A DNA stretch of 64,000 bases from an uncultured Planctomycetota bacterium (GCA_964641955.1 CAZXNM010000003.1:197813-261812); one strand, 5' to 3'. Shown: positions 6,392-20,230, counted from the stretch's first letter. The notes: generated from the sequence alone by a model not told the origin. Numbers and translations are program-made.

Positions 6392-6405
6392 TTTCGCCCC
6401 CGTAT

Positions 6406-7389
6406 CTACTTTAACCAGCCTGCGACATCCTTCGCGTGGTACGTCAGAATCATATCGGCGCCGGCACGCTTGAAACCGGTTAGAATTTCGAGCACGGTTC
6501 TTCGCTCATCGAGCCATCCTTTGGCAGCGGCCGCCTTCACCATGGCATATTCGCCGCTGACGCTATAGCACGCGACAGGTAGGTCGAATTCATCGCGCAC
6601 CAGGCTGATAATGTCCATGTATGCGAGCGCCGGCTTGACCATGACTATGTCGGCTCCCTCGGAGATGTCCAGCTCTACCTCACGCAGCGCCTCGCGCACG
6701 TTGGCCGGGTCCATCTGATAGGCGCTGCGGTCGCCGAATTGCGGCGGCGACTCTGCCGCGTCGCGGAAAGGGCCGTAGAACGCCGATGCGAACTTCGCCG
6801 AGTAGGCCATGATAACCGTGTTCTCGAACCCGGCCTTGTCGAGTGCATCTCTTATCGCGACGACCTGTCCGTCCATCATGGCCGAAGGCGCTACGACATG
6901 CGCCCCGGCCCGTGCCTGCGACAAGGCGGTCTTCGCCAGCAGCTTCAGGGTGGCGTCGTTATCGACCTCGAAATCGGCCCCGCGCTTTTTCACGACGCCG
7001 CAGTGGCCGTGGCTCGTGTACTCGCAGAGGCAGACATCCGTAATAACCAGAAGGTCCGGCACTTCCTTTCGTATGCGTTTTACCGCTTTCTGAACGATGC
7101 CGTCGGCTGCGTATGCGCCGGTTCCCATCCTGTCCTTCTTCGGTGGTATGCCGAAGAGAATCACTGCCGGGATTCCGGCAGCGAATAGCGAAGCAGCCTC
7201 TCTGGCCGCTTTATCCACGGACAACTGAAACTGGCCCGGCATGGAGGGGATGAGTTTTCGTACTTTCTTTCCTGGTCGCACGAACAGCGGCGCTATCAGG
7301 TCGTCGGTGCTCAGGCTCGTCTCTCTGACAAGCCTGCGTATAGCCTCGTTCCGCCTCAGCCGCCTCATTCTCGTTTCCGGGAAGTCCAT
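6406..7389 (-). CDS. hemB: porphobilinogen synthase (delta-aminolevulinic acid dehydratase)
   Basis: [16 protein letters not shown]...PLFV...SMPG N-terminus and active-site lysine context (VMVKPAL) of ALAD. 327 aa. Confidence 0.9.
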
Positions 7390-7410
7390 TTTCTCTCCTG
7401 TCTGTCGGTT

Positions 7411-8226
7411 TTATCCCTCGGACTCAACGTGCGCTGCAATCGCCCTGGCGAGTCCCGGCATTGTATGCTCGCGGGCTTCTATGTCAATGCGCAGGCCGAG
7501 CTTCCTCGCCACGCGCGAGGTTACCGGCCCGATAGATGCCAGCCTGGCTTTGCCGAGAAACCTTCTCAACTGCTGCGGTGCAGGCAGTCTTCCGTTTCCC
7601 GCGATTGCGGCGAGGCTGCGGACCGTCGAGCCGCTTGCCACCGTGACGAAATCAACCTTCAGGACCCGTTCTCGCAGCTTTTTCGCACCGGTACTGACAG
7701 GCACAGTTTCGTATAGGCTTCTGACAGTTACTTTCGCGCCCGCCGCACGCAGCCGCCGCGGCAGTGTCTCTCTCGCGCCCTTCGCCCGCAGAAGCAGCAC
7801 GGTCTTTCCGCCTACGCCACCTGCTTTCATCATGTCGGCCACGGATTCGGCGATGTACTTTTCCGGCACCGCCTTCACGCGGACGCGGCGCTTCCTGAGC
7901 GCGTCGGCAGTCCCGGGGCCGATGGCGACCACGCTGCTGCCGCGCAGGGCCTTCCCGCCTGCTTCGGCTCCTGCACGGCGGAAGAAATCGTCAACACCAT
8001 TGCGGCTCGTGAAAATGACGTAATCAAACTTTAGCCTGCCGGCGCAGAAGCGCTCGATAAACCTGTCCAACCGGATTGACCGGACGGGCTGAATCTCAAT
8101 CAGCGGAAACTCGACCGGCGTTGCGCCGAGCCTGCGAAGTATACGCGAGAACTCGCCCGCCTGATGTCCGGCGCGGGTGACGAGGATTTTCTTTCCCGCC
8201 AGCGGTTTTCGCGCGCTTCTAAGCAT
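7411..8226 (-). CDS. hemD: uroporphyrinogen-III synthase
   Basis: Sits between hemC and hemB. KKILVTRAGHQAGEF...PLIEI and duplicated half-domains typical of HemD. ATG at 8226 chosen over the upstream ORF start to avoid overlap with hemC. Confidence 0.7.
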   Translation of the reverse strand: MLRSARKPLAGKKILVTRAGHQAGEFSRILRRLGATPVEFPLIEIQPVRSIRLDRFIERFCAGRLKFDYVIFTSRNGVDDFFRRAGAEAGGKALRGSSVVAIGPGTADALRKRRVRVKAVPEKYIAESVADMMKAGGVGGKTVLLLRAKGARETLPRRLRAAGAKVTVRSLYETVPVSTGAKKLRERVLKVDFVTVASGSTVRSLAAIAGNGRLPAPQQLRRFLGKARLASIGPVTSRVARKLGLRIDIEAREHTMPGLARAIAAHVESEG

Positions 8227-8227
8227 A

Positions 8228-9166
8228 TCAGCTGCTCCCGCCGCGGACCTGCTGGAGTATCTCTTTCGCTCCCGCACCCATAAGCTCCTGAGCCACTTTC
8301 CATGTGACATCGCGCCAGTCGCTCGAATCGCCGTCCGCCTGCGCTTTCAGGACCCGGCTGCCGTCGGGCGAGACGACGCACGCGCTCAGGGCGACCTTCC
8401 CGTCGCTTACACGAGCCATGACGCCGATAGGCGCGCGGCACCCGCCTCCAAGAAGGTCCAGGAGTTGCCTCTCTGCCAGCGCCTCGGCTCTCGTCGGTTC
8501 GTGCTCGATGGAGCGAACTATATCGATAATATCAGAGTCTCTCACGCGTGCCTCGATAGCCACGATTCCCTGCGCTGCGGCCGGCTGCATTACGTCCGGC
8601 TCCAGCATCTCGGTAATAACATCTTCTTTGCCAAGTCTCCTGAGACCGGCGGCTGCCAGGACGATTGCGTCGAGGTCCATGGATTCGAGCTTCTGAAGCC
8701 TGGTCGGCACGTTGCCGCGCATGGAGATAATGTCGAAATCGCCGCGGAATGCCCGTAGCTGCGCTGCACGGCGGATGCTGCCAGTTCCGATGCGGGCGCC
8801 CTGGGGCAGGTCGGCGAGCTTCGCTCCGCTGCGCGAGACAAGCGCATCGCGCGGGTCCTCGCGCTTGAGGACACCGGCGACGGCGAGCCCTTCCGGTTGC
8901 GACGTCGGCAGGTCCTTGAGGCTGTGGACGGCGATATCCAGCGTCCGGTTGAGAAGATTGCGCTCAATCTCCTTGGTAAAAACGCCCGTGCCGAGCCGGG
9001 GTATCGCTTCTTCGGCGAAACGGTCTCCCGATGTCGTTACCGTCCTGATTGTGAAATCATGGCTGGGCCAGACGGCGGCGAGCTGCTCGACGGCCCATTT
9101 TGCCTGCGCCAGGGCGAGGTCGCTTCCCCGCGTCCCAACCAGAATCCTGCGGGAACCTTTCTGCAA
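8228..9166 (-). CDS. hemC: hydroxymethylbilane synthase (porphobilinogen deaminase)
   Basis: RILVGTRGSDLALAQA...TSGD and the dipyrromethane-cofactor Cys region (LGGGCRAPIG). 312 aa. Confidence 0.9.
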   Translation of the reverse strand: MQKGSRRILVGTRGSDLALAQAKWAVEQLAAVWPSHDFTIRTVTTSGDRFAEEAIPRLGTGVFTKEIERNLLNRTLDIAVHSLKDLPTSQPEGLAVAGVLKREDPRDALVSRSGAKLADLPQGARIGTGSIRRAAQLRAFRGDFDIISMRGNVPTRLQKLESMDLDAIVLAAAGLRRLGKEDVITEMLEPDVMQPAAAQGIVAIEARVRDSDIIDIVRSIEHEPTRAEALAERQLLDLLGGGCRAPIGVMARVSDGKVALSACVVSPDGSRVLKAQADGDSSDWRDVTWKVAQELMGAGAKEILQQVRGGSS

Positions 9167-9273
9167 TGCTGCTCCTCTCCGTACCGTGGGCGAGAAACAC
9201 GAATTTTACGGGCGTCGTGCCGTGCATGTCAACATCCATTGCAATTCCGCCCGGCGCGAGGGTCACATTTATG

Positions 9274-9302
9274 CTTGAAGAGAACCGAAGCGATTAGTAC
9301 AA
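9274..9302 (+). promoter_or_regulatory. candidate sigma70-type promoter (TTGAAG-N17-TACAAT) for folD
   Basis: Hexamers at 9274-9279 and 9297-9302 in the divergent hemC/folD intergenic region. AAAGGAGGA RBS immediately before the ATG at 9355. Confidence 0.35.
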
Positions 9303-9354
9303 TCATAAGTTCCACGACAGAACCTGCAAGTTCACGAGTTGAAAGGAGGATGCA

Positions 9355-10248
9355 ATGGCGGCGGAGCTTATCGATGGCAAGGCTATTTCGCAGAAGATTA
9401 TCGAAGACGTGACAGCGGAGATTGAATCCGGCGCGGTCAAGCCGCATCTCGTTGCAGTTCAGTGCGGCGAGGACCCGGCCTCCATGTACTACGTAAACAG
9501 CCAGAAGAAGAAAGCCGAGGCGGTGGGAATACAGTACACGCTCGAGCAACTGCCCGCCGATACAACCCAGGACCAGCTAATAGCCAAGATAGAGGAGCTT
9601 AACAAGAATCCCGAGGTCACGGGCATGATTCTGCAAATGCCCGTGCCGGAAGGCGTGGACCGCAGGGCAGTCCAGCAGGCGATTAACTACAAGAAGGATG
9701 TGGAAGGAATCACGCCGACGAGCCTGGGGCTTCTCATGCAGGACAGGCCGGCGCAGGTGCCCTGCACGGCGCTCGGCGCGGTCGAGCTGCTGCACGCGGC
9801 CGTTGACAAGCTCGAAGGCCTGGACGTCACCATCGTGGGCCGCAGCGAGATTGTCGGCAAGCCGGTCGCCATGCTTCTTCTGTCCATGAGCCGGAGCTGC
9901 AGCGTCAGCGTCTGCCACTCGCGCACGAAAGACCTCGAAGGCGCGGTCAGGAAGGCGGATGTCCTGTTCGCAGCCGTCGGGAAGCCCGAGATAATCAAGG
10001 GAGAATGGATAAAGAATGGCGCGATAGTCATTGACGTGGGCATTAACCGCATACCGGTCCTCGATGAGAAGGGCGAGCCCGTTCTCAACGAGAAGGGCAA
10101 GAAGAAGATGCGCACGGTCGGCGATGTCGAGTTCGATGTTGCGAATGAGAGGGCGTCGAAGATAACGCCCGTTCCCGGCGGAGTCGGCCCGATGACCACG
10201 GCGATTCTTATGCGAAATACGCTCGAGGCGGCTAAGCGCCTCAAGTAG
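9355..10248 (+). CDS. folD: bifunctional 5,10-methylene-tetrahydrofolate dehydrogenase / 5,10-methenyl-tetrahydrofolate cyclohydrolase
   Basis: IDGKAIS N-terminus, YxxxK catalytic region, GRSEIVGKPVAMLLL...TVCHSRT Rossmann motif, PGGVGPMT. 297 aa. Confidence 0.9.
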   Translation: MAAELIDGKAISQKIIEDVTAEIESGAVKPHLVAVQCGEDPASMYYVNSQKKKAEAVGIQYTLEQLPADTTQDQLIAKIEELNKNPEVTGMILQMPVPEGVDRRAVQQAINYKKDVEGITPTSLGLLMQDRPAQVPCTALGAVELLHAAVDKLEGLDVTIVGRSEIVGKPVAMLLLSMSRSCSVSVCHSRTKDLEGAVRKADVLFAAVGKPEIIKGEWIKNGAIVIDVGINRIPVLDEKGEPVLNEKGKKKMRTVGDVEFDVANERASKITPVPGGVGPMTTAILMRNTLEAAKRLK

Positions 10249-10292: not shown

Positions 10293-10910
10293 ATGGCTTA
10301 CTACTGTCTGAACCACCCCGACCGGGTTGCGGTCGGCGTATGCGTGAAATGCCGCAAGTACGTATGCGCCGAATGCGCCACGAAAATAGAGGGCGTGAAC
10401 TACTGCGCCGACTGCCTTCCGCAGGTGGGGCGCAGGAAATCCGGCCGGAGCCGCTCGTGGGAGAAGCCCGCCGCGTTTCTCGTTATCCTGTCGAGTCTCG
10501 CGGTTTGTTCCGTTCTTCTGGGCACCTGTGCCCTGCTTCTGCCCGAGGCGCGTCCGAACGTCCCGAACGAGGAGCAGTGGGATAAAAACTTCGAGTGGAT
10601 GGAAACCATCATAGAAGCCCTGCTCGAGTTCCGCGGGGACTGCGGGCGGTTTCCGAGCGATGACGAGGGTCTGGACGCGCTGGTTTCGTCTCCCGGCGCG
10701 CCGGGCTGGAGCGGCCCGTATCTCGAATCTCACATTACCTATTACGGGGTGGAGGACGAATACGGCGAGCTGGTGATATACCGGATAGGCGGGCTCCCGG
10801 AGCCGGTCGTATTAAGCGCCGGCAGGGACGGCGATTTTCAGACCGATATCGGCATGCTCGAATACGGCGAAGATGGCGAAGGGGATGATGAACTCTTCTG
10901 GGTCAAATAG
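10293..10910 (+). CDS. B-box zinc-finger membrane protein with C-terminal type II secretion pseudopilin GspG-like domain
   Basis: N-terminal CxxHP...CxxC...CxxC...CxxC B-box pattern, one TM helix, then ALLEFRGDCGRFPSDDEGLDALVSSPGAPGWSGPYLE, which resembles the GspG C-terminal domain. No prepilin leader. Confidence 0.55.
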   Translation: MAYYCLNHPDRVAVGVCVKCRKYVCAECATKIEGVNYCADCLPQVGRRKSGRSRSWEKPAAFLVILSSLAVCSVLLGTCALLLPEARPNVPNEEQWDKNFEWMETIIEALLEFRGDCGRFPSDDEGLDALVSSPGAPGWSGPYLESHITYYGVEDEYGELVIYRIGGLPEPVVLSAGRDGDFQTDIGMLEYGEDGEGDDELFWVK

Positions 10911-11754
10911 CTCGAAGCATGACATCCTGCTCGAATTGAGCCCCATGGGCGTCATCGAGCTGGTTGACGGCGGGCTGGAGATGTGCTCGCGGCACTTCGG
11001 GGCGCTTGTCATGCTCGTCCTCCCGGGATACCTGCTTCTCGGGGCGGGTGTGCTGCTGCTGGCATCCTTCGCGGAACTCCCGCCGCCCGTATTCTCGAGC
11101 GTGCCGTTCTACTACCTGCTTGCGATCGGCATTGCCTTCCTGTTGCTCGTCTCGCACATCGGCCACGGGGCCGGGGTCTACTACCTTTACCGCGCGGAGA
11201 CGGGTCAACCCGTAAGCGCCGGTGAGGCGATGTTCCGCGCCTTGCAAAAGGGAGGCTCCCTCATGACGGCGGCTGCGGTCGCATACGCGCTTGCGGGGCT
11301 GGGCGCGCTGCTCTGCATCGTTCCGGGAGTGGCCGCGTTCTCGCTTTTTGCCCTGTGCGGGCCGGTCGTTATGGTCGAGGATGCCGGGCACATATCGGCG
11401 CTCAAGCGCGGCTACCGCATGCTGAGGGAATCGGCCGGCAGGGCGTTCAAATCGTACCTCCTCGTCGCGGCGCTATGGTTTGTGGGCATGCTGAGCCTGC
11501 ACGGTATGATTCATATCGGCCTGCTGATGAGCAGGGGCCTGCTCGGGGTCGATGCGGGGCTTCTTGCCAACGCATTCGCACTGTCGAATTTCACCTACTT
11601 CGCCTTCCTGAGCATTGTCGTGCTGCTGGGGACATCTCTGTTAATGTGCGCCATGTCGGTGCTGCTCTACATTGATGTTCGCATGCGCACGGAGGGCATA
11701 GACATAGAGAGAAAAATCGAAATGCTGCCCCGTATCCGGGAGGAGACCGAGTGA
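10873..11754 (+). CDS. polytopic membrane protein, function unknown (possibly GP-PDE-membrane-domain-like)
   Basis: 293 aa with about 6 hydrophobic helices. First member of a chain of overlapping, translationally coupled genes. Confidence 0.45.
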   Translation: MAKGMMNSSGSNSSKHDILLELSPMGVIELVDGGLEMCSRHFGALVMLVLPGYLLLGAGVLLLASFAELPPPVFSSVPFYYLLAIGIAFLLLVSHIGHGAGVYYLYRAETGQPVSAGEAMFRALQKGGSLMTAAAVAYALAGLGALLCIVPGVAAFSLFALCGPVVMVEDAGHISALKRGYRMLRESAGRAFKSYLLVAALWFVGMLSLHGMIHIGLLMSRGLLGVDAGLLANAFALSNFTYFAFLSIVVLLGTSLLMCAMSVLLYIDVRMRTEGIDIERKIEMLPRIREETE

Positions 11755-12764
11755 GCTTTCTCGTCGTACTGCTGCTTTTCGGTCAACTGGCCACACCGGG
11801 GCTTGAATGGTCGGTGGATGAGTACATGGAGAGACTCGAAACCGCCATAAAAAACACGTCGGCCGCGGCGAATAGTCCATACGAATCGGAAAGGGCGGTG
11901 CAAGCCCTCCAGAACCTTAAAGGCGCGATTATCCGGTTTCCGGGAGAGGAAGCAGTCCGGGTTCACAATCGCTGGGTTGACGATGCGGTTCAGGCACTCA
12001 GGGTCGATAGCACAGGCGAAGCGGCACAAAAAATACTGGCGCGGCTCGAAGCTGTAAAACGGGAGATATCGCAGATACGGGGCGCGGAATCGTCCGAAGT
12101 CAGCGCCGAGCTTGCGACCGGCGAGGAATTCGGCGAGACAGCCTCTAAACCTAAAATCGAGGATGTGGACCTCGGTATAAAGGACAGCCTGCGCGACCTG
12201 GCCGAGTGGCTGCGCAAGCGGCTCGAAACGGAACCCGATATGCGCAGGCCCGCGACAATAAGCGTGCCAAGGGCTGTAGCCTGGATTATCGCGGTCGCGG
12301 TCGTGTGCCTGCTCGTTTTCTTCATAGTGCGACATATAATGCGAGGTCGGGGTTTCGGCAGTCCCGAGTTCTCGGGCGGGCCGAGGGTGAGAAGCCTTCT
12401 CGAAGATGCGTTAAAACGCACTCCGGAGCAGTGGAAGGAACTGGCGAGGCAATATTTCGACAAGAGCGATTTCACGCAGGCGCTCAGGGCGCTTTACCTG
12501 GGCCTGCTCGTCGTACTGCACAGGAAAAGGCTCATAAGCTACGATACCTCGCGGACGAACTGGGAGTACGTGTGGGAACTCGGGACGGCCAAGCCGGAAC
12601 ACGAGCCGTTCGCGGAGCTCACGCGCGCCTTCGACTACAAGTGGTACGGGCGCGAATCCTGCACCAGAGGCGATTACCTCGCCCTTGAGAGCAGGGCTGA
12701 CGGAATTATAGCAGCATCGGCGGACGCCGGTGCGAATGAACAGCGAACAGGGAAAACGCAGTGA
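11751..12764 (+). CDS. DUF4129 domain-containing membrane protein
   Basis: C-terminal region ALRALYLGLLVVLHRKRLISYDTSRTNWEYV...FDYKWYG fits DUF4129. GTGA start/stop overlap with the upstream gene. Sits in the MoxR/DUF58 neighbourhood. Confidence 0.6.
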   Translation: MSFLVVLLLFGQLATPGLEWSVDEYMERLETAIKNTSAAANSPYESERAVQALQNLKGAIIRFPGEEAVRVHNRWVDDAVQALRVDSTGEAAQKILARLEAVKREISQIRGAESSEVSAELATGEEFGETASKPKIEDVDLGIKDSLRDLAEWLRKRLETEPDMRRPATISVPRAVAWIIAVAVVCLLVFFIVRHIMRGRGFGSPEFSGGPRVRSLLEDALKRTPEQWKELARQYFDKSDFTQALRALYLGLLVVLHRKRLISYDTSRTNWEYVWELGTAKPEHEPFAELTRAFDYKWYGRESCTRGDYLALESRADGIIAASADAGANEQRTGKTQ

Positions 12765-13981
12765 GAGCATTTTCGGCATTATTGCTGATTGCTGCCGCGG
12801 CGGCTTTCGCCGGGAGCGTCTGGTACGCTCTCGGGCGGCGCATTGCGCGCGGGGAATACTACAGCCCCTATTCGAGCTACCGTTCCGACGCTCTCGGGAC
12901 CCGCAGGCTGTTCCTGTTCTACGAGGATGCGGGCTTCGAGCCCGAGAGGCTCAAAAACGAACTCGTCATGCTCGAGGAGCCGGGAATCCTGTTCGTGATA
13001 GAGCCGGCAAGCATGATGCTGCCTGTGCTGATTGCTGACAGGATGCCCGAGTTCGGCACTTTCATGGAACGTGAGCTGGAGGCAATCGTCTCGTGGGTGA
13101 GCGAGGGTAACGTGCTGGTGCTGGCGGGCTGCCGCGGGACCGAGCTGCATGAGCGCGTCGGGCTGGAAGTGCGGGGCATCACGCCCGGCAGGACGAGAGA
13201 TGCCCCCAGTACACAGATTTCGCCGCTGACGAGGGGGATAAGGAACCTTCGGGCGCGCCGCGGCGGCGGGTTCGAACTCGATGACGCGTCGTGGGTGGAA
13301 CTGTTCGCTTCCGAAGAGGGACAGGGCGGGCTGCAGACGCTCGCCGCAGTCAGGCGGCTGGGCGAAGGGGCGGTCGTAGCGGTAAGTGACCCCTATATCT
13401 TCACCAACAAGGGCGTGAAGGCGTCGGCGAACCTCCTTTTCGCGGCGCGGCTCGCGGGCCTCGCGGAAGGCACGAAGATGTACTTCGACGAGTATCACCA
13501 CGGGTTCAGCGACCCGAGGACCATTGTCTCCTACGTGCGCGAACGGGGCTTTTACCTTGCTGTCCTGCAGGCCATCGTCGTTTTCGTGCTTTTCGCGTGG
13601 CGGGCGAGAGCACGGCTGGGCACGCCGATAAGCCTGAGCAGGGAGGTCGAAAGAGGCTCTGCCGAATACGTAAGGGCGTTCTCGCTGATTTACCGCAGGG
13701 CTGGGCTGCACGCCAGTGTTATTCGGGCCGCATACGCGCTCTTCAGGGAAAAGGTGGGAATCTGGGCCGGGCTTGGCCGCGACGCGGAGCCGGACGAAAT
13801 CGCCGAGGCGCTCGAGAGCCGCGACGGCGCGGCGGCATCGCGGTTCAAGGTGATTACGACGCGGGCGAAAGTCGGAGGCTACGGCGGCACCGACGCGCAG
13901 GTGCTCGCTTTTACAAGACTTATAGCGTCTTTTGAGAAGGAGTTTCTGCATGCCGAAAGAAGAACTCGACGGACTTCGTGA
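12761..13981 (+). CDS. DUF4350 domain-containing protein
   Basis: N-terminal TM, 406 aa. Canonical position between DUF4129 and MoxR. GTGA coupling with DUF4129. Confidence 0.55.
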   Translation: MRAFSALLLIAAAAAFAGSVWYALGRRIARGEYYSPYSSYRSDALGTRRLFLFYEDAGFEPERLKNELVMLEEPGILFVIEPASMMLPVLIADRMPEFGTFMERELEAIVSWVSEGNVLVLAGCRGTELHERVGLEVRGITPGRTRDAPSTQISPLTRGIRNLRARRGGGFELDDASWVELFASEEGQGGLQTLAAVRRLGEGAVVAVSDPYIFTNKGVKASANLLFAARLAGLAEGTKMYFDEYHHGFSDPRTIVSYVRERGFYLAVLQAIVVFVLFAWRARARLGTPISLSREVERGSAEYVRAFSLIYRRAGLHASVIRAAYALFREKVGIWAGLGRDAEPDEIAEALESRDGAAASRFKVITTRAKVGGYGGTDAQVLAFTRLIASFEKEFLHAERRTRRTS

Positions 13982-14915
13982 GAAGATAGAGACGGCCCGT
14001 TCGGAGCTGGCGAAGGTCATTGTCGGCCAGCACGATGTCATCCGCTACATGCTTGTGACGCTTTTCTGCGGAGGACACGCGCTCCTCGAGGGCGTCCCGG
14101 GAATCGCCAAGACGCTCATGGTGCGCGCTCTCGCGCGCGTGTTCAGCGTGAAGTTCAAGCGAATCCAGTTCACGCCCGACCTGATGCCTTCCGACATAAT
14201 CGGCACCAACGTCTTCAACATGAAGAGCAGCGACTTCGCGTTCAGGGAAGGTCCCGTTTTCACCGATATCCTGCTGGCGGACGAAATCAACCGCACGCCG
14301 GCGAAGACGCAGGCCGCGCTGCTCGAAGCCATGCAGGAGCGGGCCGTTACGGTCGATGGGATTCGCAGGGAAATCTCGCGGTATTTCACCGTCTTCGCCA
14401 CGCAGAACCCGGTGGAGTACGAGGGCACCTATCAGCTTCCCGAGGCGCAGCGCGACCGTTTCCTGCTGAAGATTCTGGTGCGCTACCCCGGCCCGGAGGA
14501 CGAGGATGCGATACTGGCACGGTTCAACAAGTCGTTCGGCGCTGATGACCTTGAAGTGCAGGGCGTGAAGCCGCTGCTTACCCCGGAAGACATCGAGTCG
14601 GCGCGCAGGGCGATTGAGGGCGTGAAGGTCGAGGACGACGTGCTCAGATACGTCAGGGAGGTCGTGCGGGCGACGCGCGACTCGTCCGCCATCCTGCTCG
14701 GCGCGGGGCCGCGCGCGGGAATCCACCTTCTGACGAGCGCCAAAGGCCTGGCAGCGCTCGCCGGAAGGCACTTCATGACGCCCGACGACATTAAGGAAGC
14801 GGCCTTGCCGGCGCTTCGTCACAGGATTATCCTGCAGCCCGAGGTCGAGGTCGAAGGAACCACCCCGGATGATGCGCTGCGTGACGTTTTGAGGAAGATT
14901 GATGTCCCAAGGTAG
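13950..14915 (+). CDS. MoxR-family AAA+ ATPase
   Basis: VIVGQHDVIRYMLVTLFCGGHALLEGVPGIAKT (Walker A), DEINRTPAKTQAALLEAMQE (Walker B / sensor), about 320 aa. GAGAAGGAG RBS before the ATG at 13950. Confidence 0.9.
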   Translation: MPKEELDGLREKIETARSELAKVIVGQHDVIRYMLVTLFCGGHALLEGVPGIAKTLMVRALARVFSVKFKRIQFTPDLMPSDIIGTNVFNMKSSDFAFREGPVFTDILLADEINRTPAKTQAALLEAMQERAVTVDGIRREISRYFTVFATQNPVEYEGTYQLPEAQRDRFLLKILVRYPGPEDEDAILARFNKSFGADDLEVQGVKPLLTPEDIESARRAIEGVKVEDDVLRYVREVVRATRDSSAILLGAGPRAGIHLLTSAKGLAALAGRHFMTPDDIKEAALPALRHRIILQPEVEVEGTTPDDALRDVLRKIDVPR

Positions 14916-16227
14916 GCTTGTGCTGTCTGCGAGATTCCTGAAGCTCCTGGGTGCGGGGGCGGCACTGCTGCTGCTTGTGCCATTCGTGCCCGAGGTCGGG
15001 TTCCTGGTGCTCGGGTGCGACCTGCTGCTGGTGGTGCTGCTGTTGTGGGATGCCGGCACGGTGCCGGGCATGGACGCGGTCGGAATCGAACGCAGGCTGC
15101 CCGCCGCGCTGTCGCTCGGAGAGCGCAACCCGTGCGAAATCAGGGTCAGCAACTTCACCGACCGGATGGTGAGTGGCGTCATGCGGCTGGTATTTCCCGA
15201 GGGTCTCGCCGCCGACGTCGAGACGTGCGACATAGCCATGAAGCCTTACGGTGCGGCGCTCGTGGATTTCAGGGTCTTCGCTCTCCGGAGGGGGCTCTAC
15301 GAGGTCGAGTCGGTGTATATGCGGCTGCGCGGGCTTCTGGGGCTTGCCGAGCGCGACTACGCGTTCGACGACCCGCGCAGGGTGAAGGTCTATCCGAGCC
15401 TGCTCGGAATCGGGCGGTACGAACTCATGGCGCGCAAGAGCCACCTTGCTCAGATTGGATTCAGACAGATGCGCAAGATAGGCGCCGGGACCGAGTTCGA
15501 GAAGCTCCGCGAGTACCTCCCCGATGACGACTACCGCCATATAAACTGGAAGGCTACCGCGAAGAAGCGGAGGCCCATTACGCAGGAATACCAGATTGAG
15601 CGCAGCCAGAATATCTTCATCTGCATAGACACATCGCGGTACATGGCGTACCGCGCGGGGCGGCTCACCAAGCTGGACTACGCGGTGAACGCATCGGTCA
15701 TGCTCGCGCACGTGGCGCGCAAGTTCGACGACAACGTGGGGCTCATGGTCTTCAGCGACCGGGTGCACCTCTATCACCCGCCGCGCAAGACAGGCGGCAT
15801 GTTCGCCTCGCTCGTTGATGCGCTTTACAGGGTCGAGCCGGAGCGCTGCGCCGTCGAGTACGGCGAGGCTTTTCGCACGCTCCAGACGAGGCAGAAGAGA
15901 CGCTCCCTCATTGTGGTGTTCACGGATTTCTTCGACCAGAGGGACGGCGAGGAGCTGCTGAAGTTCGTGCCGCTCCTGGGCCGCAGGCACGTGCTTATCT
16001 GCATCACGGTGCGCGACGAGCGAATCTCGGCGCTTGCCCGCAGCGAGCCGGCGAGGGCGGAGGAGGCATTCGACCGTTTCGTGGCGGGCGAGGTGCTGTC
16101 GGAGCGTGCAAAGATACACGGAATTCTGAGAAACAGGGGCGCCTTCGTCGCCGATTCGGAGCCGAGGGACCTTACGGTAGCTGCTGTGAATCAGTACCTG
16201 CAGGTGAAAACGAGACAGTTGATTTAG
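14899..16227 (+). CDS. DUF58 domain-containing protein (vWA-like MoxR partner)
   Basis: EFEKLREYLPDDDYRHINWKATAK...PITQEY is the DUF58 signature. N-terminal TM pair. Follows MoxR with overlap. Confidence 0.85.
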   Translation: MMSQGRLVLSARFLKLLGAGAALLLLVPFVPEVGFLVLGCDLLLVVLLLWDAGTVPGMDAVGIERRLPAALSLGERNPCEIRVSNFTDRMVSGVMRLVFPEGLAADVETCDIAMKPYGAALVDFRVFALRRGLYEVESVYMRLRGLLGLAERDYAFDDPRRVKVYPSLLGIGRYELMARKSHLAQIGFRQMRKIGAGTEFEKLREYLPDDDYRHINWKATAKKRRPITQEYQIERSQNIFICIDTSRYMAYRAGRLTKLDYAVNASVMLAHVARKFDDNVGLMVFSDRVHLYHPPRKTGGMFASLVDALYRVEPERCAVEYGEAFRTLQTRQKRRSLIVVFTDFFDQRDGEELLKFVPLLGRRHVLICITVRDERISALARSEPARAEEAFDRFVAGEVLSERAKIHGILRNRGAFVADSEPRDLTVAAVNQYLQVKTRQLI

Positions 16228-17272
16228 CGCTTTCGCGGCCAGCAACGGTGAAGTACAGGATAATGAATACACCGGTCAGGGCCGCGACGAGTAGCTTGAA
16301 CCAGTAAGGAATGGCCGGCGGGTTTATCTGGCTTAGCGAGCCCTCGATAAGTCCTGCGACCACGAGAAAGGGAATAATGCCCAGCACGAGGACGAGCGCG
16401 GAGCGGCCGCGTATGCGCAGCGAGTCGAGCATCGTATACTGCCCGGGCCACAGTACGGCCCTGCCCAGGAGCAGGCCGGCGGCGCCCGCGATTACGACGG
16501 AGGTCAGCTCCATTATCCCGTGCGGCAGAACCCAGGAATAGAAGAAGAGGGCTGCGCCGCGCTGGTGGTAGTCGGCAGCCACCGCGCCGAGCGTGACGCC
16601 GTTTATGCCGAGTACGAGCGCCGTGCCGATGCCGAGGGTTATGCCGGCTGCGAATGCGAGGAGCGCGACCCGGATGTTGTGCGTGAACAGGAAGGAAGAG
16701 AAGGCGGCGGACTGGCCGGCCGACTTGATGCGCCCGCCCTCGTTCTCGGCTTCGCGCGCCTCGTCCACGCGCTGGGCGGGGTCGGCGTACATGTGCTCGT
16801 GCGGCATCAGGTAGTAGCGGCTGTTCTCATCGAAAGAGACGGCCAGGAAACCGAACACGACGCCGCCCAGCAGAAGGGCGGCGGAAAGGGCGAAATAGCG
16901 GGCGCGCAGGCGCAGCTCGCGGGGAAACGTTCGGACGAAGAAATCGGTCAGGGCGCGCAGGCGCAGGCGGCGGCCGGAGTAGATACCGGCGTAGCCGCGC
17001 GAGACCAGGCTGTTGAGGTATTCGGTGAGTTCAGCGTTGGAAGTGGCGGAGCGGACGTGCACGAGGTCGCTGCAGACCTTGCGGTACAGTATGCCGAACT
17101 CCCTGAGCTGCTTGTGGTTGAAGCGGTCGAGCCCGGCGGTCTCGGCGGTCCCGAGCATCTTTTCGAGGTTGTGCCAGTCTTCGCGGTTATCTGCTATAAA
17201 CTTGTTGAGGTCCAATACGTGCGCCCTCCGCGCTGAAAGCTTTATAGCACTCTGCGCGGGATACTTCAACAC
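16172..17272 (-). CDS. stage II sporulation protein M-like (SpoIIM/DUF95 family) membrane protein
   Basis: Polytopic, with HGIMELTSVVIAGAAGLLLG-type helices and an N-terminal FIADNREDWHNLEKML motif. A TTG at 17215 is an alternative start. Confidence 0.65.
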   Translation of the reverse strand: MLKYPAQSAIKLSARRAHVLDLNKFIADNREDWHNLEKMLGTAETAGLDRFNHKQLREFGILYRKVCSDLVHVRSATSNAELTEYLNSLVSRGYAGIYSGRRLRLRALTDFFVRTFPRELRLRARYFALSAALLLGGVVFGFLAVSFDENSRYYLMPHEHMYADPAQRVDEAREAENEGGRIKSAGQSAAFSSFLFTHNIRVALLAFAAGITLGIGTALVLGINGVTLGAVAADYHQRGAALFFYSWVLPHGIMELTSVVIAGAAGLLLGRAVLWPGQYTMLDSLRIRGRSALVLVLGIIPFLVVAGLIEGSLSQINPPAIPYWFKLLVAALTGVFIILYFTVAGRESAKSTVSFSPAGTDSQQLP

Positions 17273-17292
17273 GTTTTCGGGAAGGAACCCGG

Positions 17293-18060
17293 GTGAAGTA
17301 TAAGGTAATCACACCGGAGAACCTCGAGCTTACGTTCGAGCTGGCGGGCCTGACCGGCCGGTTCCTGGCGTGGCTTATAGACACGCTGTTCATGATAGCG
17401 ATAATTATCGCGGGTATTATTGTGCTTGCGATTGTGGGATTCGCCTCGCCGCACCTGTTCACGGCTTTGATGATTATCCTGGTATTCGTCGTGCAGCAGG
17501 GCTACTTCATCTTTTTCGAGCTTAAGTCGGGCGGGACGACCCCCGGTAAGCGCATAATGAAGATACGAGTCATACAGGACACCGGCATCAGGATAGGATT
17601 CTATCATTCTTTTCTCAGGAACATCATGCGGCTCATGGATTCCACGCCGCTCATGCTGCTCCACGTGGTCGGAGCGGCAGTGGCTTTCTTCCACCCGCTG
17701 AATCGCAGGCTCGGCGACGCAGTGGCGGGGACGGTGGTCGTGCGCGAGCGCAGCTACCCCGAGCCGGGGAAGATAATCGCCGAGAGCGACAAGTATTCGA
17801 CCCTTCTCGGGAACTATCGCCTCAGGGAGACAATCAAGCGCACCGTGAGCAGCGAAGAGAAAGAGGCCATGATTGAGGCGTGCCTTCGTGCCGAGGAAAT
17901 CGAGCTTTCCCGCAGGCTGGAGATTTTCGCAAGGCTCGGCCGGCGCATGAGGAGCAAGCTGGACCTGCCGCCCATGGAGTTCAGCAGCGACGAGAAGCTT
18001 GTGCGAAACATCACCGCCATACTTCTCGGCGCCGAGCCTGAAGCCGGTGAAAAGGCTTGA
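17293..18060 (+). CDS. RDD family membrane protein
   Basis: N-terminal RDD domain (GRFLAWLIDTLF...GGTTPGKRIMKIRV) followed by a soluble C-terminal extension. GTG start. Confidence 0.8.
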   Translation: MKYKVITPENLELTFELAGLTGRFLAWLIDTLFMIAIIIAGIIVLAIVGFASPHLFTALMIILVFVVQQGYFIFFELKSGGTTPGKRIMKIRVIQDTGIRIGFYHSFLRNIMRLMDSTPLMLLHVVGAAVAFFHPLNRRLGDAVAGTVVVRERSYPEPGKIIAESDKYSTLLGNYRLRETIKRTVSSEEKEAMIEACLRAEEIELSRRLEIFARLGRRMRSKLDLPPMEFSSDEKLVRNITAILLGAEPEAGEKA

Positions 18061-18121
18061 TTTGTGCAGGTGCGGTCTGCTATTCTCGCGCCCTCGACCC
18101 TAAGCTTTTCAGGAGAACGGA

Positions 18122-18835
18122 GTGAAGGTCCGCTGCAGGAAATGCGGCAGCACGTTCGAGGCGCTCGCGGACGAGGAGGCGCTTTGCCCCGTCTGCCGGC
18201 GTCTTGGCGGCGGGCATCCGGAGGCAGCGCTGGAAGGACCGGAAGGCTCGGACGAGACAAAAGCCAACCGCTGCGCAGTCCATCCCGGCAACGTGGCCGA
18301 CCAGGTATGCGGGCGCTGCGGCAACTTCATGTGCAGGCTGTGCGCAATCCACGTGGGCAGGACGCGAGTCTGCCCGGCGTGTTTCAACAGGCTCTACGAG
18401 AAGGACGAGGTTTTCGTCCGCTACGCCGGATTCGGTGAGCGCCTGGGTGCGCTGGTGATTGACTGGGTGCTTCTATTCGTCATTTCCCTTTTCGTCAACA
18501 TGATTCTGCAGATTGCCTGGTTCAGCCGGGACTCAGAGGGTGAGCTGGGCTTCCTGCTCTTCTCGATGGCCATGGTGGGGCTCTGGAGCTTCTACAACGT
18601 GGCGCTGTGGACCCTGACCGGCTCGACGGTCGGCAAGCGGGCGCTCGGCATCAAGGTCGTGGGGCCGGACCACAAGCCGCCGTCGCTGCCACGTTCGCTG
18701 GCGCGCTACGCAATGTACTGGGTGAGCACGGCGGTGTTCTTCCTCGGCTTTTTCTGGGCTGCATGGGAGCCCAGGCACAGGGCGTGGCATGACCTCGCGG
18801 CAGGCACCGAAGTAATCGTAGCCCATAAGAAGTGA
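18122..18835 (+). CDS. zinc-ribbon / B-box zinc-finger fused to RDD domain protein
   Basis: N-terminal CRKCG...CPVC zinc ribbon, B-box-like CAVHP...CGRCGNFMCRLC...CPAC, then an RDD domain (RLGALVIDWVLL...GSTVGKRALGIKVV). Confidence 0.75.
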   Translation: MKVRCRKCGSTFEALADEEALCPVCRRLGGGHPEAALEGPEGSDETKANRCAVHPGNVADQVCGRCGNFMCRLCAIHVGRTRVCPACFNRLYEKDEVFVRYAGFGERLGALVIDWVLLFVISLFVNMILQIAWFSRDSEGELGFLLFSMAMVGLWSFYNVALWTLTGSTVGKRALGIKVVGPDHKPPSLPRSLARYAMYWVSTAVFFLGFFWAAWEPRHRAWHDLAAGTEVIVAHKK

Positions 18836-18860: not shown

Positions 18861-20072
18861 CTAATCGCTCTGCGCGGTCGGCTCCGTTTCTTCCTGCGCT
18901 ACCGGTCCTTCCGAGGTTGTGATATCCTCGTATATCGGCGAGGGCAGGGGCGGCTCCTTGCTTTGGGCAGGTGCCGGCGCGGGTTCTTCCTGTGCGACAG
19001 TCATGAACCCTTCGCCCGCGGCAAGCTCTATCATCTGCTTTATCTGCTGGATTTCCTTGTCAATGTCGGCGAGTGTGGGAGATGGTGGAGGCTCTGGTGA
19101 GGAGATAGCTGCTGGCTCTTCCTCCATATCCGCCTCCTGCTCGAAATCGGAAGCCTCGACGCTTTCGAGTCCGGCTTCTGCAAGCCCTTCCGGCGCGGTG
19201 GCGGTCTTGCTGCGCTCCTGCTGGATAAGCTCGCGCAGCTTCGCTTCGGCGCGCCTCGCCTCGTCTTCGAAGCCGGGCGGCGGCCAGACCATGGGTTCCG
19301 TCTCGGCCTCTACGCCCGCGACCTCGCGCGCCAATTCCATGTAGTCTTTCGCACCGCTTGAACCGGGATCGTACTCGATTATCGTCTTGCCGTGGCCCGG
19401 CGCTTCCGCAATGCGCACGTTGCTGCGAATCGTGCTGGCGAAGACCTTTTCCTTGAAATATTTCCTGACTTCCTCGACGACCTCGTGCGCAAGGTTGGTG
19501 CGCCTGTCGAACATGGTGAGGATAATGCCGCTGAGGTCGAGATTCGGGTTAAGGCGGCGCTTTACGAGCTTCACCACGTCCAGCAGCTTGCCCATGCCCT
19601 GCAGCGCGAAAAACTGCGTCTGCACCGGGATGAAGACCTCGCTAGCGGTAGTCAGCGCATTCAGCGACAGCAGGCCCAGCGACGGCGGGCAATCGATGAG
19701 AACGTAGTCGTAGTGTCCGCCCTCGCGGACGTGTTCGAGCAATGCGTCGCGCAGGATTGTCTCGCGGCCGACCGCGCTTGCAAGCTCGACCTCCGCACCG
19801 GAAAGGTCTATGTTCGAGGGGATTATGTCGAAGTTCTTGCGTTTGGTCGGTCTTACCGCCTTCGAGACCGGCATCTCGCCGAGGAGGACGTTGTATATAC
19901 TTTGCTTTGTCTTGTAGATGTCGATGCCGAGGTGGATGCTCGAGTTTGCCTGCGGGTCGATGTCTATGAGCAGGACTTTGCGGCCGAGCTTTGCGAGGCA
20001 GGCTCCGAGGTTTACGGCGGTGGTGGTTTTCCCCACGCCGCCCTTCTGGTTCATGAATGCTATGATGCGCAT
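18861..20072 (-). CDS. ParA/Soj-family ATPase with a roughly 150-aa acidic, Pro/Glu-rich C-terminal extension
   Basis: Deviant Walker A MNQKGGVGKTTTAVNLG, IDIDPQAN and DCPPSL motifs. ATG at 20072 (MRIIAF...) preferred over the longer ORF. No adjacent parB. Confidence 0.85.
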   Translation of the reverse strand: MRIIAFMNQKGGVGKTTTAVNLGACLAKLGRKVLLIDIDPQANSSIHLGIDIYKTKQSIYNVLLGEMPVSKAVRPTKRKNFDIIPSNIDLSGAEVELASAVGRETILRDALLEHVREGGHYDYVLIDCPPSLGLLSLNALTTASEVFIPVQTQFFALQGMGKLLDVVKLVKRRLNPNLDLSGIILTMFDRRTNLAHEVVEEVRKYFKEKVFASTIRSNVRIAEAPGHGKTIIEYDPGSSGAKDYMELAREVAGVEAETEPMVWPPPGFEDEARRAEAKLRELIQQERSKTATAPEGLAEAGLESVEASDFEQEADMEEEPAAISSPEPPPSPTLADIDKEIQQIKQMIELAAGEGFMTVAQEEPAPAPAQSKEPPLPSPIYEDITTSEGPVAQEETEPTAQSD

Positions 20073-20230
20073 ACATCCCCTCCCAGCGCATGGTCTGCTG
20101 CGATTCATTATATTTTGTACAGCTCAGTCACGCAAGGCTATTCCTGTTAGACAATCTGGTGCGCAGAGGAATATTAGTGTATAATCATGAAATTACTTAC
20201 TGGAACAGGATGTGAAACGGAGGTTGTGCA

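Follow-up and report, generated by a model that had tools for sequence, protein, structure and literature searches.

Gene organisation of the locus

The window that we studied is a stretch of 64,000 nucleotides from an uncultured Planctomycetota bacterium, and nine genes (g1-g9) are encoded at its positions 10293-18835, see Table 1. ORF translation bears out the gene boundaries and strands given in an initial annotation of this DNA. With the exception of the ATPase, all the components are anchored in the membrane.

Table 1. Genes of the locus, with positions counted from the first nucleotide of the window.
Gene	Position	Strand	Length	Assignment
g1	10293..10910	+	205 aa	B-box-like Zn finger, one TM helix, GspG-like head
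g2	10873..11754	+	293 aa	polytopic membrane protein
g3	11751..12764	+	337 aa	DUF4129 (Pfam)
g4	12761..13981	+	406 aa	DUF4350 (Pfam)
g5	13950..14915	+	321 aa	MoxR-family AAA+ ATPase (Pfam)
g6	14902..16227	+	441 aa	DUF58/vWA (Pfam)
g7	16172..17215	-	~347 aa from TTG 17215	SpoIIM (Pfam)
g8	17293..18060	+	255 aa	RDD (Pfam)
g9	18122..18835	+	237 aa	Zn ribbon, B-box-like finger, RDD

Junctions of the GTGA/ATGA type had been described between these genes. Genuine 4-base GTGA overlaps are indeed present at g2/g3 and g3/g4, while the overlaps at g4/g5 (32 nt, from the g5 start ATG 13950, which has a Shine-Dalgarno-like GAGAAGGAG upstream) and g5/g6 (14 nt, from ATG 14902) are longer. That of g1 and g2 is 23-38 nt, varying with the start codon chosen. 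Further, g6 and g7 are convergent and overlap by 56 nt, and g7 and g8 are divergent with a gap of about 77 nt; a GGAGG lies upstream of the g7 start at TTG 17215, and the frame is open up to GTG 17272. The genes from FolD through g1 to g6 are probably co-transcribed and translationally coupled.

The module is surrounded by hemB, hemD, hemC, folD, a nitroreductase and ABC exporters. Downstream of g9, on the minus strand, lies the ParA-type ATPase that had been reported to carry a long acidic tail: the protein has 415 residues, of which the C-terminal ~140 are acidic and proline-rich. The stretch from folD to parA is collinear throughout the close relatives (g1 identity 52-78%), so synteny among these proves nothing by itself. 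The ParA/FolD synteny is confined to this narrow clade and both genes are missing at other B-box-headed loci: FolD and ParA are mere neighbours of the module.

A conserved seven-gene core

Seven of the genes form a core of the Rv3689-Rv3695 type: g2, DUF4129, DUF4350, MoxR, DUF58/vWA, SpoIIM on the opposite strand, and RDD. In neighbourhood maps, which are based on ORF calls made for this analysis and on jackhmmer profiles, and in which metagenome contigs do not count as independent lineages, its order and orientation are kept across at least six phyla. We found it in Mycobacterium (L045, L066) and other Actinomycetota (L068, L077), in Chloroflexota (L006), Brocadiia (L007), Gemmatimonadota (L056) and Poribacteria (L082), and also in Planctomycetota. 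The opposite-strand placement of SpoIIM is common to Mycobacterium, Chloroflexota, Brocadiia and Gemmatimonadota. The two halves are still neighbours in Streptomyces, with an rRNA operon inserted between DUF58 and SpoIIM/RDD.

The SpoIIM-like protein and the first RDD protein had been regarded as an extension of the module; since their order and orientation are the same in Mycobacterium and five other phyla, they belong to the ancient core. The core module is ancient, vertically inherited and located in the inner membrane. A literature search found no paper devoted to it, although a table in one study lists M. chelonae orthologues of Rv3689 and Rv3691-Rv3695, all of which drop jointly by ~6-8 units in its fold-change column (PMC8191103).

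The topology of the individual proteins was derived from hydropathy and flanking charge (the positive-inside rule). The first core protein, g2, has about five hydrophobic segments, no match in Pfam or NCBIfam, and a position equivalent to that of Rv3689. Its homologues occupy the equivalent position in 78 of 84 loci (L001-L084), and in L005 it is fused to the DUF4129 protein. The title given to the module in the initial annotation leaves out g2. In g3 (DUF4129, 35.7 bits) a signal-like N-terminus and an external region, which is probably helical, precede a TM helix at residues 175-193 and a cytoplasmic DUF4129 domain. The layout of g4 (DUF4350, 54.5 bits) is a TM helix, the periplasmic DUF4350 domain, a second TM helix and a cytoplasmic helical C-domain. 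In a Foldseek search with its AF2 model (pLDDT 74) the best match is the IFT52 N-terminal (GIFT) domain (E 2.6e-5), followed by flavodoxin-like (GATase1-like) domains of GH42/GH164 enzymes and a GATase1-like protein of Planctomyces; the model thus suggests that the DUF4350 domain has a non-catalytic GIFT/GATase1-like fold.

Matches to AAA_3 (209 bits) and AAA_lid_2 (75 bits) identify g5 as MoxR, and its translation contains Walker A (GVPGIAKT) and Walker B (LLADEINR) motifs. Its partner g6 matches DUF58 (122 bits) and VWA_2 (43 bits) and has a TM hairpin at its N-terminus, with the DUF58/vWA body in the cytoplasm. In place of the canonical MIDAS DxSxS it has D-T-S-R-Y, and the consensus of an alignment of 21 module DUF58 proteins at this site is LD-x-G-R-x-M, so the usual model of metal-mediated substrate binding may not apply to this vWA family. 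The polytopic g7 (SpoIIM, 135 bits) has a cytoplasmic helical region at its N-terminus. The core is closed by g8 (RDD, 76.8 bits), a membrane protein with a cytoplasmic helical extension at the C-terminus, in a position equivalent to Rv3695. No transglutaminase-like or other protease match to g1-g9 was found in Pfam or NCBIfam. In total, periplasmic parts are contributed by g3 (its N-domain), g4 (the GIFT-like domain) and g1 (the GspG-like head), whereas MoxR, the zinc fingers, DUF4129, the DUF58/vWA body and the C-domain of g4 lie in the cytoplasm.

Zinc fingers at the edges of the module

The fingers of g1 and g9 have an identical eight-ligand spacing, CxxH-x8-CxxC-x4-CxxC-x9-CxxC. A six-frame scan of the 64-kb window gives only two matches to this pattern, one at each edge of the module, so the bracketing by zinc fingers that had been noticed earlier is not a chance effect of a cysteine-rich genome. 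The domain searches upheld all the earlier domain assignments, including the B-box and GspG-like ones, though both zf-B_box scores (20.0 bits in g1 and 15.9 bits in g9) are under the Pfam cut-off of 24.1, as is the Zn_ribbon_8 match of g9 under its own. Among 15 finger segments, 14 score best against zf-B_box in Pfam, and one homologue (L037) scores above the cut-off. Weak profile matches to the MID1 and TRIM B-boxes are accompanied by equally weak profile or fold matches in the PDB to FYVE, RING, LIM and piggyBac cross-brace fingers, and the fold search does not separate B-box from these.

Metagenomes were searched for the finger motif by itself, and the module played no part in the query. 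Where downstream sequence was present, g2 or g3 lies directly downstream of 31 of 38 distinct short B-box+TM ORFs, and of none of 12 longer multi-TM B-box proteins. In a large environmental subfamily the conserved first gene of the module is one for a small protein that combines a cytoplasmic B-box-like finger with a single TM helix; the commonest of these relatives have ~95 residues, with a median of 14 past the TM helix. The flanking finger genes are therefore conserved with the module well past the immediate relatives of the window, and the link is real and wider than had been supposed. The modules of Actinobacteria and Chloroflexota do without any B-box protein, which makes the finger proteins accessory.

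At the downstream edge, g9 consists of a Zn ribbon (C5-x2-C8 ... C22-x2-C25), the finger (residues 51-87) and an RDD membrane domain (89.4 bits in Pfam). It has ten full-length homologues, is an accessory protein and was seen only alongside B-box-headed modules. A downstream B-box protein is present in four of five independent B-box-headed loci, being absent from some (L097), and in none of six B-box-less loci. The same finger, often with a preceding Zn ribbon, is found on interchangeable polytopic domains at the module edges: Zn-ribbon+B-box+Yip1 in L158 and L161, B-box+Yip1 in L160, and Zn-ribbon+B-box+DUF4190-like in L037 (by Pfam) and L135. A protein in L007 is of this kind by its layout, although Pfam does not report DUF4190 for it.

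It could be argued that the finger genes are only syntenic neighbours without a functional tie, like FolD and ParA, given the collinearity of close relatives. We regard this as extremely improbable. The adjacency of finger and module survives in lineages where MoxR is only 51-56% identical to that of the window, and these lack neighbouring FolD and ParA, have different gene orders and include one inversion. Further, g2 starts ahead of the g1 stop codon, and the metagenome association above came from a search independent of the module.

In g1 the finger, of the binuclear type (residues 5-41), is followed by a basic stretch, a TM helix (~57-82), a proline-rich linker and a periplasmic head (~93-205). 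The eight ligands are invariant or nearly so in 12 full-length homologues. The head matches Pfam T2SSG with 35.5 bits (cut-off 21, residues 103-182), and in a Foldseek search of the PDB with the AF2 model (pLDDT 70) the best 15 matches are EpsG, PulG, GspG and XcpT, with E-values from 2e-4 and target-normalised TM-scores of ~0.6. The C-domain is thus a true GspG homologue by sequence and predicted fold, and its closest matches outside the family (P0013, P0014) are bona fide prepilins that have the motif FR-D-GRFP-EGL-AL in common with it. From this one could propose that g1 is a minor or anchoring pseudopilin of a T2SS/T4P-like apparatus, with the MoxR module as a secretion-associated chaperone.

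However, several properties make such a role very improbable. As the initial annotation stated, g1 has no prepilin leader: class III signal peptide and Gly-1/Phe+1/Glu+5 are missing, and a 55-residue zinc finger occupies the leader position. The linker, of low confidence in the model, interrupts the helix that is continuous in pilins, and the NCBIfam GspG equivalog score is 29 bits against a cut-off of 89. No G-F/M-T/S-L-x-E prepilin motif occurs anywhere in the window, nor any T2SS/T4P gene among the ten flanking ORFs scanned. The earlier hint at a secretion-associated function is not borne out by these results.

The head was also considered as the feature that ties the finger proteins to the module, and was rejected in this role. 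Since the commonest finger relatives have almost no periplasmic part, the GspG-like head is an addition in some lineages, and it is the finger and TM helix that carry the association. Forms with this head make up 13 of the 150 best cluster representatives. At least four other divergent lineages, of which one is rearranged, have such a form leading the module or next to it. Given enough contig, the GspG-headed forms adjoin it in L161/L162, L158, L159, L160 and L163/L164; the block from DUF4129 to DUF58 is inverted in L163, and in L158 no MoxR or DUF58 follows DUF4350. The leading finger protein has gained the head in several lineages, including that of the window.

The order of zinc finger, TM helix and periplasmic domain is also the classical anti-sigma layout. 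According to this, g1 would be a transmembrane signaller whose head senses an envelope signal and regulates the expression or activity of the module, and the variation of the head among lineages (absent, very short or GspG-like) would fit. We consider it quite improbable: there is no zf-HC2/ZAS match, the ligands form an eight-ligand cross-brace pattern rather than HxxxCxxC, the neighbouring genes encode neither a sigma factor nor another regulator, and polytopic RDD and Yip1 proteins carry the same finger. In addition, with a median of 14 residues past the helix the commonest relatives are unable to sense the outside.

Possible function and relation to known systems

We propose, at roughly even odds (about 0.5), that the locus represents a zinc-finger-decorated form of the MoxR/DUF58 module, specific to its lineage, in which the B-box is a shared cytoplasmic handle for docking or oligomerisation. 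A MoxR hexamer and its membrane-tethered DUF58/vWA partner would constitute an ATP-driven remodelling machine by which integral-membrane or envelope protein complexes are put together, taken apart or extracted. The B-box might dock on the cytoplasmic face of MoxR/DUF58/DUF4129, or oligomerise with fellow B-boxes as in eukaryotic TRIM proteins. In both cases g1, g9 and the Yip1 and DUF4190-like counterparts would join the complex, whether as subunits or as clients. The GspG-like head would be a tethered periplasmic domain for binding or sensing, not a building block of a pilus. A chaperone or remodelling role in the envelope is the most reasonable general idea.

Alternatively, the B-box membrane proteins could be substrates or regulated clients of the machine and not structural subunits. 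MoxR/DUF58 would then grip the exposed N-terminal finger and pull the protein from the membrane or reposition it there, and the envelope levels of the RDD, Yip1 and GspG-headed proteins would be set by quality control or regulated turnover. The finger is always N-terminal and cytoplasmic, on unrelated domains (RDD, Yip1, DUF4190-like, GspG head), which is the pattern of a recognition tag, and a terminal handle is commonly engaged by AAA+ ATPases. In earlier work, prokaryotic B-boxes and MoxR-vWA operons were predicted to take part in membrane-protein stability and proteolysis (Burroughs et al. 2011, via PMC4506424; PMC3495828). On the other hand, g1-g9 include no peptidase by Pfam or NCBIfam, substrate threading is not known for MoxR ATPases, and a fixed gene order with tight translational coupling is more like that of stoichiometric subunits. 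We judge the client role unlikely and retain the shared docking handle as our reading.

A MoxR ATPase with a vWA-family partner, associated with the membrane or envelope, is also found in Bacteroides Bat, Rhizobium RL3499-RL3502 and RavA-ViaA. Their partner sets are different from that of the window (BatA-E with TPR and vWA; ViaA), and to our knowledge none has DUF4129, DUF4350, SpoIIM, RDD or B-box proteins. DUF4129 typically occurs as the C-terminal domain in transglutaminases of the TgpA type. The MoxR-vWA(DUF58)-transglutaminase-like operon of the YebA/TgpA type resembles the window in combining MoxR and DUF58/vWA with polytopic membrane partners; however, g1-g9 contain no detectable transglutaminase and have DUF4350, SpoIIM, RDD and the finger proteins in addition. 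At the related locus L160 a TgpA_N+Transglut_core gene adjoins. For such MoxR-vWA-TGL operons a role as systems of protein processing close to the membrane has been predicted (PMC3495828).

The eight-ligand spacing of the fingers resembles B-box1 of the B-box zinc fingers known from eukaryotes and prokaryotes (PF00643; TRIM/MID1), but in the present proteins the finger precedes a TM segment, with no RING or coiled coil. The g1 head is 23-25% identical to GspG/PulG/EpsG and retains the S-x-G-x-D-G and terminal GDD motifs; in contrast to these, g1 has an ordinary TM anchor behind a finger and lacks the leader, Glu5 and the continuous N-terminal helix. Another related system is the mycobacterial Rv3689-Rv3695 cluster (the moxR2 region; MAB_0386c-MAB_0392c in M. 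abscessus), which agrees with the window in the seven core genes, their order and the strand of SpoIIM. Its MoxR is 53-54% identical to that of the window, its g2 homologue is longer (~400-450 aa), and B-box, Zn-ribbon and GspG-like proteins are missing from the cluster, as is a second RDD protein. This cluster is likewise functionally uncharacterised: the module type itself is known, also in Mycobacterium tuberculosis, and it is the finger-bearing variant that is new.

Gene layout and surroundings

Listing and translation of the ORFs place nine genes, g1 to g9, between 10293 and 18835, and reading frames, Pfam assignments and both zinc fingers agree with what the initial annotation had described there (see table). 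GTGA overlaps are found at the g2/g3 and g3/g4 junctions, while the remaining plus-strand junctions are overlaps of 14 to 38 nt (14 nt at g5/g6). The DUF58/vWA gene g6 lies directly downstream of the MoxR gene g5, and its 3' end is shared with that of the convergent SpoIIM gene g7. Among related loci in other genomes or contigs (L-numbers), this convergent overlap has the same 56 nt in L002, 23 nt in L007 and is missing in L161.

Features of the window and of related loci. Positions refer to the window unless an L-number is given.
Feature	Position	Strand	Length	Assignment or remark
hemB-hemD-hemC	6406-9166	minus		Heme biosynthesis cluster, divergent from folD
Sigma-70-like hexamers	9203-9303			Intergenic region shared by hemB-hemD-hemC and folD
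folD	9355-10248	plus		
g1	10293-10910		205 aa	T2SSG 35.5 bits (cut-off 21); zf-B_box 20.0 bits (cut-off 24.1)
g2	10873-11754		293 aa	No family in Pfam or NCBIfam
g3				DUF4129 (Pfam)
g4				DUF4350 (Pfam)
g5	from ATG 13950 (most likely the true start)			MoxR AAA+ ATPase, MRP-like; AAA_3 209 bits, AAA_lid_2 75 bits
g6	from ATG 14902	plus		DUF58 122 bits, VWA_2
D-T-S-R-Y site in g6	15619-15642			Residues about 240-247
DUF58/SpoIIM overlap	16172-16227		56 nt	Shared 3' ends
g7		minus		SpoIIM (PF01944) 135.3 bits, above cut-off
g8				RDD (PF06271) 76.8 bits, above cut-off
g9				RDD 89.4 bits, above cut-off; Zn-ribbon and B-box matches sub-threshold
ParA/Soj-like ATPase	18861-20108	minus	415 aa	Acidic, proline-rich C-terminal tail of ~140 residues
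6S RNA (SsrS)	43543-43725	minus		65.7 bits (gathering score 46.4)
Two extra zinc-finger genes	L004:7640-8847		294 aa, 98 aa	Upstream of folD
Fused g2-DUF4129 protein	L005:1180-3132		650 aa	Planctomycetota MAG
Complete rRNA operon (5S, 23S, 16S)	L017:12372-17520	minus		Streptomyces sp. NBC_00727
Yip1 proteins	L158:1509-2612, 5960-6898; L160:3161-5561; L161:8946-10004; L163:1115-1912			Beside GspG-headed modules
Second RDD protein	L007:14233-14904; L092:13496-13783; L108:17569-18177			Short-B-box modules

Topology was assigned by hydropathy and flanking charge, and by these measures all module proteins except MoxR are membrane-anchored. In g1 a cytoplasmic finger is followed by a single TM helix and a GspG-like domain outside. 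The g3 protein has a signal-like N-terminus, an external region and one TM helix, with DUF4129 inside, while in g4 the external DUF4350 domain lies between two TM helices and a helical domain follows inside. The body of g6 is inside, held by a TM hairpin at the N-terminus, and g2, g7, g8 and g9 are polytopic.

As g1 begins 44 nt past the folD stop, folD and the module may share a transcript. On the other side, the ParA-type ATPase is convergent with g9, is conserved no further than the close clade (L002) and has no adjoining ParB. Both ParA and FolD were rejected as parts of the module, being syntenic in the close clade only. Terminator-like sites occur at chance level in the promoter and terminator scan (11 observed against 9.6 expected), and the 6S RNA is the sole Rfam match in the window.

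Conservation of the core module

A genome scan with MoxR gave at least 80 related loci, which were annotated with jackhmmer profiles for which the window proteins served as seeds; the resulting maps are built on longest-ORF calls and these home-made profiles. Among the matches listed, the order g2, DUF4129, DUF4350, MoxR, DUF58, SpoIIM (opposite strand), RDD is identical in Mycobacterium (L045, L066), other Actinomycetota (L068, L077), Chloroflexota (L006), Brocadiia (L007) and L161. In Poribacteria (L082) all core genes are there with looser spacing, and in Gemmatimonadota (L056) the order is kept up to SpoIIM. Further, the M. chelonae orthologues of Rv3689 and Rv3691-Rv3695 are all co-regulated in a transcriptome table (PMC8191103). 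SpoIIM and the first RDD protein had been taken as an extension of the module; because their order is conserved across phyla, from Mycobacterium to Brocadiia, and the mycobacterial orthologues are co-regulated, they are instead core components. The core module is old, and annotated genomes already contain it. Our literature search, which covered the prokaryotic B-box literature in part, found no paper on the function of the seven-gene module. The sporulation role of B. subtilis SpoIIM does not carry over to g7, since the module occurs in non-sporulating phyla.

Some loci depart from the common arrangement. In Streptomyces the module is split, with SpoIIM and RDD found ~6 kb further on and a complete rRNA operon filling the gap after DUF58 (L017). 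The observation extends to L035, L062 and L083 and to many Streptomyces contigs that end ~1.3-1.5 kb after DUF58; dozens of draft contigs break just past this gene because of the rRNA operon there. In the Planctomycetota MAG L005, one protein combines g2 with the DUF4129 protein, no B-box gene, SpoIIM or RDD is found nearby, and a 417-aa protein and a histidine kinase/response regulator pair come after DUF58. The window MoxR clusters loosely with those of L005 and L161 in a rough NJ tree, which is a hint only.

Regarding the individual components, the Walker A (GVPGIAKT) and Walker B (LLADEINR) motifs of g5 are intact. The predicted structure of the periplasmic domain of g4 has a non-catalytic GIFT/GATase1-like fold, with the N-terminal domain of IFT52 as the best match in a fold search. 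The vWA domain of g6 is without the canonical MIDAS motif DxSxS and has D-T-S-R-Y at this site. An alignment of 21 module DUF58 proteins gives the consensus LD-x-G-R-x-M, the Arg being invariant or near-invariant in all phyla sampled. This replacement of the MIDAS motif suggests that DUF58 vWA binding may be independent of a metal ion.

Zinc-finger proteins beside the core

The fingers of g1 and g9 share the B-box1-like spacing CxxH-x8-CxxC-x4-CxxC-x9-CxxC, with eight ligands, and in a six-frame translation of the whole 64-kb window these two are the only matches. Within the 12 members of the g1 family each of the eight ligands is invariant or almost so, and C5, H8, C17, C25 and C28 are invariant in 15 diverse finger segments. 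Against zf-B_box (PF00643, cut-off 24.1), g1 scores 23.7 bits as an isolated segment and 20.0 as a whole protein, and g9 scores 15.9, while a homologue in L037 reaches 25.4 bits, above the curated cut-off. Among Pfam families, zf-B_box also ranks first for 14 of the 15 segments. In the AF2 model the finger consists of short beta hairpins (pLDDT 76-86). Its fold matches are weak, with E above 1 (piggyBac CRD, Slp4, LIM, MuRF1 B-box2), and together with the profile-to-PDB matches, also weak, they fall on cross-brace fingers of the B-box, FYVE, RING, LIM and piggyBac types. The defensible name is a B-box-like binuclear cross-brace finger, predicted to bind zinc. A zinc finger ahead of a TM helix and an external domain could also be read as a zinc-binding, anti-sigma-like sensor. 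This reading of g1 is disfavoured, as Pfam gives no zf-HC2/HxxxCxxC (ZAS) match in g1 at E up to 0.1, and no sigma gene is among the scanned neighbours.

The initial annotation had the two zinc-finger proteins bracketing the module. Word-indexed protein searches with g1, g9 and g4 gave 12, 10 and 10 full-length relatives, all from a narrow clade. The close g1 relatives are all collinear from folD through parA, which proves little by itself. Breadth was derived from the MoxR genome scan, a B-box metagenome scan and an exhaustive phmmer run.

In the distant Planctomycetota L007 and L037, the core is immediately preceded by a short B-box+TM gene, which stands ahead of g2 in L007 and ahead of DUF4129 in L037, and both loci have extra zinc-finger proteins past the core RDD gene. 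The metagenome scan used the g1-type finger motif alone as query and counted distinct ORFs followed by 300 nt or more of sequence. Here g2 or g3 comes directly next in 31 of the 38 short B-box+TM ORFs, on contigs that do not equal independent lineages, and the rest of the module follows where the contig allows; for longer multi-TM B-box proteins the count directly upstream of g2 or g3 is 0 of 12. Finger proteins downstream of the core are present in four of the five independent B-box-headed loci that leave space for such genes and in none of the six B-box-less loci.

The phmmer run with residues 1-85 of g1 gave 709 cluster representatives at E <= 1e-3. Among the best 150 of these, 13 have the GspG-like C-domain and 114 do not exceed 145 aa; almost all of the 114 have a single TM helix, with a median of 14 residues beyond it. 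Distant GspG-headed proteins adjoin the module wherever the contig is long enough. In L161 and L162 the order is Yip1, B-box/GspG, g2, DUF4129, DUF4350, MoxR, DUF58, SpoIIM (opposite strand), RDD, and in L158, L159 and L160 B-box/GspG is followed by g2, directly or past a Yip1 gene. In L163 the DUF4129-to-DUF58 block is inverted, and Yip1, B-box/GspG, g2 and SpoIIM still abut it. Chance synteny, where the finger genes would lie beside the core by accident, is disfavoured. Given the adjacency in distant genomes, the metagenome counts and the GspG-headed loci including the inverted one, the module membership of the zinc-finger proteins is well supported. The rough MoxR NJ tree unites the short-finger loci in one large group and places the GspG-headed loci (window, L002, L161) elsewhere, a hint that the association may not be confined to one tight clade.

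The Zn-ribbon+B-box unit of g9 is found on other proteins too: it begins the Yip1 proteins of L158 and L161 and stands on a DUF4190-like domain in L037 and L135. An L007 protein has the same layout as the latter, with DUF4190 not reported by Pfam, and in the L160 Yip1 proteins the B-box stands behind a different N-terminal region. Polytopic Yip1 proteins recur beside GspG-headed modules, most of them with an N-terminal B-box; L160 has two tandem B-box-Yip1 paralogues with a TgpA_N+Transglut_core gene just upstream. The second RDD protein of short-B-box modules has a different small N-terminal domain with at most two cysteines and the motif C-x-[VM]-T-G-x2-VPEDE-[LI]-[VI]-x-[IF]-x-G-x-RV-[CS]-AEGKAIL. 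In L004, a relative in the window's clade, the two extra genes encode a B-box-like protein with a lysine-/glutamate-rich region (294 aa) and a zf-LITAF-like protein (98 aa), neither of which is in the window.

The C-terminal part of g1 resembles a pseudopilin. The AF2 model (12 homologues, pLDDT 70) has a beta-hairpin finger, a TM helix (57-82) and an alpha-beta head, and a low-confidence, proline-rich linker (residues 84-88) interrupts the helix before the head. Its top Foldseek matches in the PDB are all major pseudopilins (EpsG, PulG, GspG, XcpT; E 2e-4 to 2e-2), with a TM-score normalised to target of ~0.6 and 23-25% identity, and the closest matches outside the family are true prepilins with a common FR-D-GRFP-EGL-AL motif. 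This homology, together with the Pfam T2SSG match, might suggest that g1 is a T2SS component. Against it, the class III prepilin leader, with the motif G|F/M-T-L-x-E for cleavage and methylation, is absent from g1, its 12 relatives and the whole window, and no T2SS or T4P genes are among the scanned flanking ORFs; these comprise folD, heme biosynthesis genes, and genes for a nitroreductase, ABC exporter, radical SAM enzyme and GGDEF protein. Further, g1 is without Glu5 and without a continuous hydrophobic N-terminal helix, the finger preceding the TM helix, and its score against the GspG equivalog TIGR01710 is 29.1 bits, far below the cut-off of 88.85. Having no leader and no Glu5 and falling far under the equivalog cut-off, g1 has a pseudopilin head, as judged from sequence and model, but is not a pseudopilin itself. 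From the earlier suggestion that this domain hints at secretion, the head homology stands, while the secretion role is disfavoured.

Possible function and known systems

What is observed is a MoxR ATPase and a membrane-tethered DUF58/vWA protein, surrounded by a conserved set of membrane-embedded proteins to which many lineages add one to three further membrane proteins with a common N-terminal cytoplasmic B-box-like finger. Our hypothesis is that MoxR and DUF58 would form an ATP-driven remodelling device that acts on protein assemblies of the membrane or envelope. As a common cytoplasmic handle, the finger could dock the membrane proteins that carry it onto the complex from the cytoplasmic side, or alternatively link these proteins together by B-box oligomerisation. 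The GspG head might be a tethered periplasmic binding or sensing domain gained in some lineages. This proposal fits earlier computational opinion: in the part of the work of Burroughs et al. 2011 that PMC4506424 summarises, prokaryotic B-boxes are assigned roles in membrane-protein folding, stability and proteolysis, and MoxR-vWA operons with membrane partners are predicted to be membrane-proximal protein-processing systems (PMC3495828). The main rival accepts the machine and takes the finger proteins as its clients, not its subunits. An anti-phage defence role, including MoxR-vWA conflict systems, is disfavoured: PADLOC finds only a weak partial match in the RDD region of g8 and no match in g1-g7 or g9, and the gene setting is housekeeping.

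A bolder form of the docking hypothesis would make the prokaryotic B-box a dedicated docking or oligomerisation tag, with the MoxR/vWA machine recruiting and mechanically remodelling any membrane protein so tagged at its N-terminus. Candidates would be proteins with a bare TM helix, the GspG head, RDD, Yip1 or DUF4190-like domains. We consider this form rather improbable. If true, higher-order assembly by B-boxes would have a forerunner in prokaryotes, in which relatives of TRIM-type fingers that resemble their ancestors are paired with the closest prokaryotic kin of the dynein/midasin AAA+ domains, and there would be a first handle on the function of the M. tuberculosis Rv3689-Rv3695 module.

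The locus overturns nothing; the zinc-finger-headed form is a new version of an already known module, widespread from Mycobacterium tuberculosis and Streptomyces to Planctomycetota. It turns a vague MoxR module into a specific, testable proposal of a zinc-finger contact. The recurrence of the finger on otherwise unrelated membrane proteins of the module is a concrete feature that points to a specific protein-protein contact, and once mapped, this contact could be used to learn what the ATPase acts on. Further, the locus gives prokaryotic B-boxes a defined genomic partner.

Two known systems serve for comparison. The MoxR-vWA-transglutaminase-like (YebA/TgpA) system has a transglutaminase-like peptidase domain, whereas no protein of the window module has a Transglut_core match. 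The major pseudopilin GspG differs from g1 in its leader, its continuous helix and its T2SS gene neighbours. What the two have in common is the head domain, and g1 is a case of its reuse outside secretion systems, with a zinc finger ahead of the tethered domain.
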